IMG/VR virus record: IMGVR_UViG_2913112809_000001
DNA length: 4,492 bases
Reading direction: 5' to 3' (one strand)
Source: a virus
Taxonomy: Duplodnaviria; Heunggongvirae; Uroviricota; Caudoviricetes
The first letter of the stretch is position 1; each line of letters begins with the position of its first letter. The notes under the pieces are model-generated. The model had not been told where the DNA came from and searched no databases. It saw only the letters and a program-made list of their open reading frames with translations. This document shows positions 2,568 through 3,638 of the stretch, in pieces. A program made the translations under genes and the position numbers.

Positions 2568-2625
2568 TGTCACCCACGGAACAATTTTATCTGCTGACTT
2601 TCCTCCGTTAACGCGACACAACCTT
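2568..2625. repeat. Left arm of 58-bp inverted repeat bracketing the orphan-gene cassette
   Basis: 2569..2623 'gtcacccacggaacaattttatctgctgactttcctccgttaacgcgacacaacc' equals the reverse complement of 3583..3637 except for one base (T at 2604 versus the complement of 3602). Identity extends to 2568..2625 versus 3581..3638. Similarity decays to patchy matches outward and stops abruptly inward. Confidence 0.85.
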
Positions 2626-2639
2626 AATATGGCACAAAG

Positions 2640-2793
2640 GTTTTTGTTAACGAGCTGCATCTTTTTTCTTTTCTGGGTGATGATTGTTTTATAATAAACA
2701 AATAACAACATTTATTCTTGTAAAAGTAATAATATCTCTCTGGCGATCGAATTTATTGATCGCATTTCAATTAAACAAATAAGGAGTTTTTTT
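2640..2793 (+). promoter_or_regulatory. AT-rich upstream/promoter region of the 2794..3495 gene (also divergent to the minus-strand operon)
   Basis: Strongly AT-rich stretch with a perfect sigma70 -10 hexamer 'TATAAT' at 2690..2695 and another -10-like 'TAATAT' at 2730..2735. No convincing -35 was found by eye. Ends with SD 'AAGGAG' at 2781..2786, 7 nt before the ATG. Exact promoter not determinable from sequence. Confidence 0.35.
2743..2763. promoter_or_regulatory. Operator-like palindrome containing two GATC (Dam) sites
   Basis: 'GCGATC' - 9 nt (gaatttatt) - 'GATCGC' perfect inverted repeat at 2743..2763, about 30 nt upstream of the gene start and between the candidate -10 elements and the SD. 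Confidence 0.35.
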
Positions 2794-3495
2794 ATGCCAA
2801 AAATTACCGGTGTTCTAGTGAGCCACCATGTTTTCGATATAAAAAAAGACATGGCTAATGGTTCATTCCCGAAAACATTATTTCCAGGTGCGACATTTCA
2901 GATGGTGGTTGACAATGATGTTGTCAATAATAATACGTTGGACTGGAGTGTTGTCACCAATGCGGGAGACAATTCGCTGACTGTAAATCAGGACGGCGTG
3001 GTGTCATTTTCAAAAGATATTGATGAAAGTTGCATTGGTAAAACATTTGTTATTTTTGCGAAGGATAAAGCCACAGGGAAATTTGTGTCATCTTATTTAA
3101 TTAAACCTCATCGCTTCTTTAAACCTCGTGTCGCAACGTGGGACTACTTTGACAATGCATGGTTGTGGATTGAAGATAAAAAAGGGACTGTCCCGGCTCG
3201 ACGCGATATCAATAATGTCCCTTTCGATGAACTGACGGGAGAAATGTTTCATGATGTAAAACGTGAAGTGAATTCCGGGCTTTTTCAGGAATGGGGATTT
3301 TTACTGTTTAGTGGGTGGACTAATCCTGTACGTGGTGATATTGGTAGTCTCGAATCAGAAATGTTCACTTTAGAAAATGACAGGGTATTTATATCGACAG
3401 TCAACTCCCTCCCATACTCCAGAGATATCCGGGATGATATGGACTCCCCGCTTGCACAGGCTGTAGCGTTTTACGGGGAATCTGTTGTTTCCTGA
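2794..3495 (+). CDS. Orphan hypothetical protein (233 aa), low-GC moron-like gene; function unknown
   Basis: ATG at 2794 with a strong SD (AAGGAG, 7-nt spacer) and TGA stop at 3493..3495. A partial hand count of the first 60 nt gives 37% GC, and the gene looks visibly more AT-rich than int throughout. No signal peptide or transmembrane segment evident. N-terminal half is beta-rich and Asn/Asp/Val-rich; the C-terminal half contains 'VPFD...(10 aa)...DVK'. No family recognised. Confidence 0.75.
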   Translation: MPKITGVLVSHHVFDIKKDMANGSFPKTLFPGATFQMVVDNDVVNNNTLDWSVVTNAGDNSLTVNQDGVVSFSKDIDESCIGKTFVIFAKDKATGKFVSSYLIKPHRFFKPRVATWDYFDNAWLWIEDKKGTVPARRDINNVPFDELTGEMFHDVKREVNSGLFQEWGFLLFSGWTNPVRGDIGSLESEMFTLENDRVFISTVNSLPYSRDIRDDMDSPLAQAVAFYGESVVS

Positions 3496-3515
3496 TGTTT
3501 TAATGAGTTTTTAAT

Positions 3516-3550
3516 AGTCTCCGTCTTTTTAATTTAAAGAGACGGAGATT
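3516..3550 (+). terminator. Long near-perfect palindromic hairpin downstream of the orphan gene (possible terminator or protein-binding site)
   Basis: 'agtctccgtcttttta' (3516..3531), loop 'att', then 'taaagagacggagatt' (3535..3550): 14 of 16 positions pair (one more as a G-U wobble). It starts 20 nt after the stop codon. There is no clean U tract after the stem on either strand, so it is not a canonical intrinsic terminator. Confidence 0.35.
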
Positions 3551-3580
3551 ACCGGCTCTGCAACGCGAAGCTCAGGAACA

Positions 3581-3638
3581 AAGGTTGTGTCGCGTTAACG
3601 GTGGAAAGTCAGCAGATAAAATTGTTCCGTGGGTGACA
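3581..3638. repeat. Right arm of 58-bp inverted repeat bracketing the orphan-gene cassette
   Basis: Reverse complement of 2568..2625 with a single mismatch (3602); see left arm. Confidence 0.85.

Follow-up and report, generated by a model that had tools for sequence, protein, structure and literature searches.

We analysed a stretch of 4,492 nucleotides (nt) from the IMG/VR virus record IMGVR_UViG_2913112809_000001, hereafter the window, in whose numbering positions are given. The window is a lambdoid prophage remnant that adjoins fliE in cryptic-clade Escherichia, and it carries a cassette made of one gene enclosed by the two arms of an inverted repeat. The repeat search placed the arms at 2568–2625 (left, on the side of humD) and 3581–3638 (right, on the side of hot), each in a short form of 58 nt, with 57 of the 58 positions complementary (98%) and 955 nt in between. 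Self-BLAST agreed with this search, and with a preliminary description of the sequence that had reported the same repeat, and it widened the match to 68 nt at 94% identity (2559–2625 and 3581–3648). The repeat was perfect (58/58) in every related genome fetched; the lone mismatch of the window is a private A-to-T change at 2604, in the left arm. A protein identical to that of the cassette is on record for Escherichia sp. E4742 and for CP055649.1.

The interior is poor in guanine and cytosine (GC content of 31–44%, versus about 49–53% in the flanks) and holds a single open reading frame (ORF). This passenger gene (2794–3495, plus strand) encodes a protein of 233 amino acids resembling domains D4–D5 of invasin. 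It is preceded by an AT-rich upstream region (2626–2793, plus strand) with a small hairpin (2743–2763), a Shine-Dalgarno (SD) sequence AAGGAG (2781–2786) seven bases upstream of the ORF, and a tract of seven T (2787–2793). A strong 17-bp hairpin follows the gene at 3515–3551 (-30.8 kcal/mol, z-score -5.9); it lacks a U-tract, i.e., it is not a canonical intrinsic terminator. The initial account of a low-GC gene with its own upstream region, SD sequence and hairpin was therefore accurate. The T tract between the SD sequence and the ATG counts seven T in the window and in locus L026, and six in the other genomes, which alters the spacing between the SD sequence and the start codon.

Identity between the arms ends abruptly at the inner edges, and at the outer edges a similarity of ~65% runs on for roughly 30–50 nt. 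This gradual outer decay, also pointed out in the preliminary description, is moderately above chance and marginal (z-scores of 3.3–3.7; 3–5 of 2000 shuffles equal it). On the right it concerns the spacer between the arm and the stop codon of hot (3639–3686), which is ~65% similar to the inverted humD sequence outside the left arm. We considered that the right outer flank might be a second humD-like pseudogene and rejected this idea, as tblastn gave no match with HumD or UmuD. Positions 2537–2545 and 3665–3673 differ in a peculiar way: the humD side reads GCCCCTTGC, and the aligned hot side of related genomes reads GCAAGGGGC, its exact reverse complement. This is an apparent micro-inversion of 9 nt within the diverged outer part of the repeat.

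The cassette lies between homologues of hot and humD, which is the location of a moron slot, in the order hot fragment, arm, gene (on the opposite strand), arm, humD fragment. The humD fragment (2428–2577, minus strand; UmuD'-like, S24 peptidase) is internal to the gene: tblastn against HumD of RCS47 matched residues 35–82 only (2571–2428; 43 of 48 residues identical). The arm takes the place of its first 34 codons, and its C-terminal third is gone. Nucleotide homology to humD of P1 and of Escherichia coli prophages ends at 2568–2572, i.e., at the outer edge of the left arm. The hot fragment (3687–3821, minus strand; homologue of the theta subunit of DNA polymerase III, Pfam PF06440 on a call of 44 residues) is 86–89% identical by blastn to hot of P1 and RCS47 over 3709–3821, and relative to these its 3' end is replaced. 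Its 5' end is cut at about 3821–3822. Since homology to fuller prophages stops at 3821 and a tail-fibre fragment follows, the large deletion that made the remnant has its junction at ~3822, inside hot and not at the arms. The earlier suggestion that the arms mark this deletion is also unsupported because IMG/VR prophage contigs of 34–49 kb carry these arms and flanks as well.

Two orientations of the cassette interior

We compared the cassette between genomes using their assemblies, and call A the orientation of the window, in which the gene runs opposite to its neighbours hot and humD, and B the one in which the interior is flipped. Orientation A was found in all 10 distinct genomes with the fliE locus that we fetched, and in the IMG/VR contig L023. 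Six other IMG/VR prophage contigs (L024–L029) have orientation B: they carry the same flanks, and the segment 2626–3580 is inverted exactly between the arms. Their sequence corresponds to the reverse complement of window positions 3581–3821, followed by 2592–3614 in forward direction and by the reverse complement of the window up to 2599. A seventh locus, from Escherichia whittamii (L014), has the matching B-type junction between hot, arm and promoter.

The arm-flank alignment allowed the four types of junction to be read directly, with reciprocal junctions in both forms. In the B loci, the hot flank meets the promoter end of the interior and the humD flank meets the hairpin end. One contig of each orientation, L023 (A) and L028 (B), has the integrase backbone of the window, at 98% identity. 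The two arms of the B loci differ from each other by single-nucleotide polymorphisms and by a 34-nt indel, such that only about 34–40 nt are identical. These alignments show a real inversion polymorphism in cryptic-clade Escherichia: the unit formed by the upstream region, the gene and the hairpin occurs in both orientations within backbones that are otherwise collinear. Invertibility, which had been proposed from the repeat, hence holds at the evolutionary scale, and the comparison of related loci ran counter to a single fixed orientation. We also considered the short Logan contigs as evidence of mixed orientations and set them aside: their ends lie 30 or 52 nt into the arms, which is expected of a k=31 graph with any inverted repeat.

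The inversion probably occurred more than once, because the orientation does not follow the phylogeny of the interior. In this phylogeny the B contigs L024–L029 form a tight cluster, whose sister is L023, in orientation A. The locus of E. whittamii is in orientation B, has none of the derived sites of the B cluster, and shows 2–3 differences from the A alleles over the 395 nt of interior available. Either the interior was inverted two or more times, or it was inverted once and alleles were exchanged between strains.

Anatomy and distribution of the arms

The ancestral arm was ~92 nt long and consisted of an outer part, a block with the motif CTGT-N8-ACAG, and an inner part of 34 nt (TGCTGACTTTCCACCGTTAACGCGACACAACCTT). 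The inner part is the longest perfectly identical stretch: apart from the private change of the window, it is the same in all 21 arms examined, i.e., it has one variable column where about 5 would be expected from the interior. Among the genomes with the fliE locus, the arms were not significantly conserved, with 0–1 changes per arm where about 2 would be expected. The motif of the middle block is perfect in arms of L023, L027 and L028. In E. whittamii it deviates at a single base, and the arms that adjoin humD in the B cluster have a degenerate version. A perfect core of LexA type was found once per locus, within an arm, versus 0.10 expected per locus. The ancestral arms thus carried what is, judging by its sequence, a LexA-box motif.

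The 58-nt arms of the window result from a deletion of 34 nt between two direct repeats of TGCTGACT. This deletion removed the LexA motif from both arms and created in each an outward promoter-like match (TTAACG-16-TAAAAT; 2611–2584 in the left arm, 3595–3622 in the right one). Native humD genes have a LexA box just upstream. We examined whether the arm might derive from the native upstream and 5' coding sequence of humD, with which it shares by eye CAGCAGATAA and a LexA box, and found no support for this origin, the alignment z-score being below 2.

The arms are rare, and were always found as a pair around this gene. Searches by blastn gave no match for arm or interior in 5,426 complete E. 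coli genomes, which does not fit the suggestion that an arm is the end of a multi-copy element. We found no cassette with arms in the PLSDB plasmids, no cassette interior in GenBank phages, and no match at all in the metagenome contigs of the Joint Genome Institute (JGI). Among 100,044 representative genomes the arm is present in one species, E. whittamii. Whether IMG/VR was scanned with the inner arm, with the outer arm or with the protein, the result was the same seven contigs. Diverged paralogues of the gene (40–70% identity) are encoded elsewhere, at chromosomal loci unrelated to this one; we found no inverted repeats around them, around lxr of P1, or at the empty site of RCS47.

Possible mechanisms of inversion

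We think it fairly probable that the cassette is an accessory (moron) gene residing in the variable hot-humD slot, and that it has been flipped by homologous recombination between its arms, which are an inverted duplication of a sequence of ~92 nt. The inner 34 nt provide a perfectly identical inverted stretch that exceeds the 25–30 bp taken as the minimum for such recombination. The flips would be made by the host RecA or by a prophage RecT and exonuclease acting on the arms. The crossover would fall in the invariant inner 34 nt, because the variants of the LexA block keep to their flank in both orientations. There would be no dedicated invertase, and inversion would be sporadic rather than programmed. 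The early-left operon has the order hot, humD, xis, int. A flip carries the upstream region and the hairpin along with the gene, and the two arms are equivalent. Its main effect would therefore be on the direction of the gene relative to the int-proximal early operon, which is the same in B and opposite in A (as for lxr of P1). Orientation B would expose the gene to read-through upon induction, and orientation A would insulate it. The element of the window is in orientation A in a decayed remnant, with fragments of humD and hot as neighbours and with the predicted operators of its arms lost.

The slot itself has a precedent. In P1, hot is followed by lxr on the opposite strand, then by a LexA box and by humD; in RCS47 nothing separates hot from humD. 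The hot-lxr-humD region is listed among the highly variable, low-GC regions of P1-like phage-plasmids (PMC9603915). The cassette resembles lxr in that it occupies the same slot, in orientation A lies on the opposite strand with the 5' end of the gene toward humD, has a predicted LexA operator between gene and humD (in the relatives with long arms), and combines low GC content with variable presence (lxr is absent in RCS47). It differs from lxr in that Lxr is unrelated to the 233-residue protein (BLASTP E-value of 0.57), and in that P1 has no flanking inverted repeat; moreover, the insertion described here truncates both hot and humD. Our results extend the LexA-regulated moron slot hot-lxr-humD of P1 to lambdoid prophages.

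The search for recombinases in the vicinity bears on the mechanism. We found a single match with two mismatches to a hix/gix-type core (AAACC-NN-GGTTT-like) in the window, at 476–487 inside int, where 2.5 are expected by chance. We scanned the 10 largest ORFs of the window, and likewise the 10 largest of an 11.5-kb part of L029, a fuller prophage, and found no gene of the resolvase family. L029 adjoins ybhC at the lambda attachment (att) site and encodes a 356-residue lambda-type integrase, unrelated to that of the window. It also encodes RecT and a YqaJ exonuclease at ~4 kb from the cassette, a proximity that is only circumstantial as regards a dependence on RecA or on RecT and exonuclease. 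The preliminary description had drawn attention to a complete tyrosine recombinase near the repeat. The enzyme is there (434 residues, 1.26 kb from the left arm), yet it is unlikely to be the inverter, because the cassette is linked to two different integrases, each with its own att sites. The att junction on the side of fliE has by eye no resemblance to the arm, and no att-core repeat survives in the remnant for comparison with it.

Several points weigh against inversion of a moron by homologous recombination between these arms. The arm has no significant similarity to the native upstream and 5' sequence of humD (local alignment with three humD loci), and no consensus sigma-70 promoter was called on the plus strand upstream of the gene. 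The stronger conservation of the inner 34 nt, relative to the interior, would also fit a core site bound by a protein. The scan for invertases covered part of each prophage of 34–49 kb, and a distant invertase is possible, e.g., near the tail-fibre genes. The evidence for inversion is drawn from assemblies. Finally, the count of at least two events is based on the partial sequence of E. whittamii and on a handful of informative sites, and an exchange of interior alleles between strains could mimic two events.

The best-placed alternative, which we nonetheless regard as unlikely, is a programmed site-specific switch in which the integrase or another phage recombinase acts on a core within the inner 34 nt. 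Such a switch would toggle the expression of the invasin-like gene, possibly with a link to the SOS response by way of the LexA boxes that the arms contain. It would account for the occurrence of both orientations and their incongruence with the phylogeny, for the invariance of the inner 34 nt in the 21 arms, for the tyrosine recombinase so near the left arm, and for the LexA-box motifs of the long arms. A homopolymer tract that shifts the reading frame in some strains (A7/A8, see below) would fit as well, since this is often seen in contingency loci. On the other hand, no invertase gene was found among the largest ORFs of the window and of the 11.5 kb of L029, no hix/gix-type core was found in the window, and the cassette is tied to two unrelated integrases. 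Arms of 58–92 nt that vary by indels far exceed typical recombinase sites. The gene takes its own upstream region along, so that a flip leaves any connection to a promoter intact, and the 10 distinct genomes with the fliE locus all share one orientation.

A bolder form of this idea, which we hold to be quite improbable, takes the arms as a programmed and possibly SOS-coupled switch where a recombinase so far unrecognised, or annealing of RecT type at induction, would flip the invasin-like gene between an insulated and an operon-coupled state. If true, the switch and the A7/A8 tract would make up a two-layer phase-variable factor for surface or host interaction in prophages of cryptic-clade Escherichia.

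Orientation B might instead have arisen in the assemblies, because of the repeat; the segment would then be fixed, and the repeat an inert scar of an inverted duplication. Assemblers can flip segments bounded by repeats, and the Logan contigs L007–L010 do break within the arms. Yet, B-type junctions occur in seven independent assemblies, i.e., six IMG/VR isolates and E. whittamii, and the B loci group together coherently by sequence, with derived sites of their own. A misassembly is also unlikely because the ~34–40 identical nt shared by the arms of the B loci are much shorter than reads and than the usual final k-mers. We consider this explanation very improbable.

It is barely credible that the element is a mobile cassette akin to a miniature inverted-repeat transposable element or a transposon, with 58-bp terminal inverted repeats and independent insertions in either orientation: although inverted terminal repeats do surround a self-contained low-GC gene, in keeping with the earlier proposal of such a cassette, there is no transposase, no second copy and no target-site duplication (the flanks are GGTAATGGC before the left arm, ending in AATGGC, and ATCCATCAC after the right arm, starting with ATCCAT) and what the outer flanks share is a weak inverted similarity, the arms were found at this junction alone and always paired in the collections searched, the paralogues at other loci lack the repeats, and both orientations share the same truncated flanks of hot and humD, which independent insertions would not repeat. 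We saw neither the arm pair around another cargo, nor the cassette elsewhere with a target duplication, nor an empty site with intact hot and humD and the same flanks. An integron cassette is also at odds with the sequence: by inspection, GTTAACG in the arm misfits the GTTRRRY core, and there is no intI, the sole recombinase being a phage integrase with an arm-binding domain.

How does the cassette compare with known invertible elements? The G segment of Mu with Gin, the C segment of P1 with Cin, the P segment of e14 with Pin, and the Hin system of Salmonella have an adjacent invertase, 26-bp hix, gix or cix sites and an enhancer, and such segments exchange the coding ends of tail-fibre or flagellin genes (see also PMC4272514). 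They share with the cassette a location between inverted repeats, within a prophage, and the existence of two orientations. They differ from it by their invertase and core sites, of which we found none in reach, and by their cargo; that of the cassette is an entire gene, start included.

Invertons, such as fimS with FimB and FimE or those of gut Bacteroides, have repeats of ~9–30 bp around a promoter and an adjacent dedicated tyrosine or serine recombinase. Like them, the cassette has inverted repeats and its flip can change transcription relative to the neighbouring genes. Unlike them, its arms of 58–92 nt surround a whole gene with its upstream region, and no dedicated recombinase was seen. 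Pipelines searching for invertons equate inverted repeats found in two orientations with programmed switches, and our results, if homologous recombination makes the flips, call for caution in this respect.

General recombination between inverted repeats, e.g., insertion sequence (IS) copies, rRNA operons or pairs of prophages, produces inversions that become fixed between strains (PMC4272514; PMC8743559). The cassette is similar in that it involves inverted homologous sequences, possibly general recombination, and differences at the level of strains. It is different in scale, ~1 kb versus tens of kb to Mb, in that its arms are short and unique to the locus, and in that inversion is apparently recurrent.

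Inversion between inverted repeats is therefore already known in prophages; what is new is that an accessory gene inverts in full, between short arms that formerly had a LexA-box motif, with no dedicated invertase in reach. The invertible segments known so far in enterobacterial prophages swap the ends of tail-fibre genes by means of a dedicated invertase. Here, what flips is an entire accessory gene, whose product has a predicted invasin-like fold; the repeats measure only 58–92 nt, no invertase lies in reach, and the flip apparently happened more than once. If homologous recombination is responsible, very short inverted duplications can sustain the flipping of a prophage gene over evolutionary time. 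If the inversion is programmed, it would represent a new type of switch, tied to SOS operators.

The passenger protein and the surrounding remnant

The passenger gene had been called an orphan. In fact, it belongs to a small protein family (14 clusters), found in Escherichia only, and related to D4–D5 of invasin. The protein matches the Pfam profile Invasin_D4 (PF21764) with 31.2 bits, above the cut-off of 27, i.e., it has an Ig-like D4 domain. A profile built from 13 members of the family matches residues 303–395 of Yersinia invasin (1CWV) with an E-value of 6e-8. The AlphaFold model has a mean predicted local distance difference test score (pLDDT) of 62.7; it is confident over residues 1–115, with values of 85–93 across residues 31–100, and poor in the C-terminal half (below 50). 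Foldseek aligned this model with 1CWV over 243 columns (E-value of 1.5e-9). The protein is thus, according to profiles and model, a putative stand-alone module resembling D4–D5. It shares with the D4–D5 superdomain of Yersinia invasin the D4 domain by sequence and the fold over about its whole length. It differs from invasin in being only 233 residues long and in lacking D1–D3, the beta-barrel anchor and, by inspection, a signal peptide. We found no evident signal peptide or membrane anchor by inspection, no signal-peptide predictor having been run, and no LysM domain or repeated Big domains; the protein begins directly with the D4-like domain. This analysis identifies an uncharacterised, Escherichia-restricted family of stand-alone proteins resembling D4–D5.

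Within the family, 56 columns are invariant in the alignment of 13 sequences, and this deeper conservation supports a real protein. At short distances, the ratio of non-synonymous to synonymous polymorphism (pN/pS) of the gene is 0.3–1.3, which gives no clear sign of strong purifying selection. In the lineage of the window and L006, a dense cluster of substitutions occupies the middle of the gene (~3130–3175, interior columns 505–549), with a pN/pS of ~1 relative to the other alleles, which suggests a recombination patch or diversifying selection. The tract of seven A at 2841–2847 (codons 17–19) counts eight A in four B-type relatives (L026–L029), which results in a frameshift and a stop at codon 22. 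In these alleles a downstream ATG gives the form of 214 residues found in databases (P0022). The A7/A8 difference suggests either on/off switching by strand slippage or a gene that has begun to decay. One paralogue with 70% identity, in Escherichia sp. E3659 (L011, 4614–8034), is encoded between a XerC-like tyrosine recombinase and the gene of a Scabin-like ADP-ribosyltransferase toxin, downstream of a large autotransporter, and has no inverted repeats.

The rest of the window is made of the early region and of a relic of the tail. The tyrosine recombinase is the complete integrase (1–1305, minus strand; Arm-DNA-bind_2 with an E-value of 1e-25 and Phage_integrase with 8e-18 in Pfam); fliE lies 17 bp past it in L005 and L006. 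Next come an excisionase of the DUF1233 family (1351–1596, minus strand; 81 residues according to the call at 8558–8803 of L005; PF06806, 2e-31), a conserved early-region phage protein of 114 residues with no assigned function (1672–2016, minus strand; phrog_1229), and a phage protein of 104 residues annotated as transcriptional regulator (2081–2395, minus strand; phrog_536), which is almost unchanged across loci. Shortly before the start of the excisionase there is a run of nine G (1622–1630; C9 on the coding strand), which falls within a longer reading of its ORF, of 97 residues.

A mosaic (recombination) boundary falls sharply at about 2396–2400: the region of the humD fragment (2400–2567) is 7–8% different between the window and L015–L021, and the adjacent gene of the 104-residue protein only 0–0.3%. 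At the other end of the window, beyond the deletion junction and outside the cassette, lies the C-terminal fragment of a tail-fibre protein (3895–4188, plus strand), which matches the last ~90 profile positions only (phrog_3299, 7e-66; phrog_454, tail fiber, 2e-22). In L015 and L017–L019, the gene of an IS transposase of the rve family (5398–6573) adjoins hot at the equivalent of ~3822, where the window has the tail-fibre fragment.

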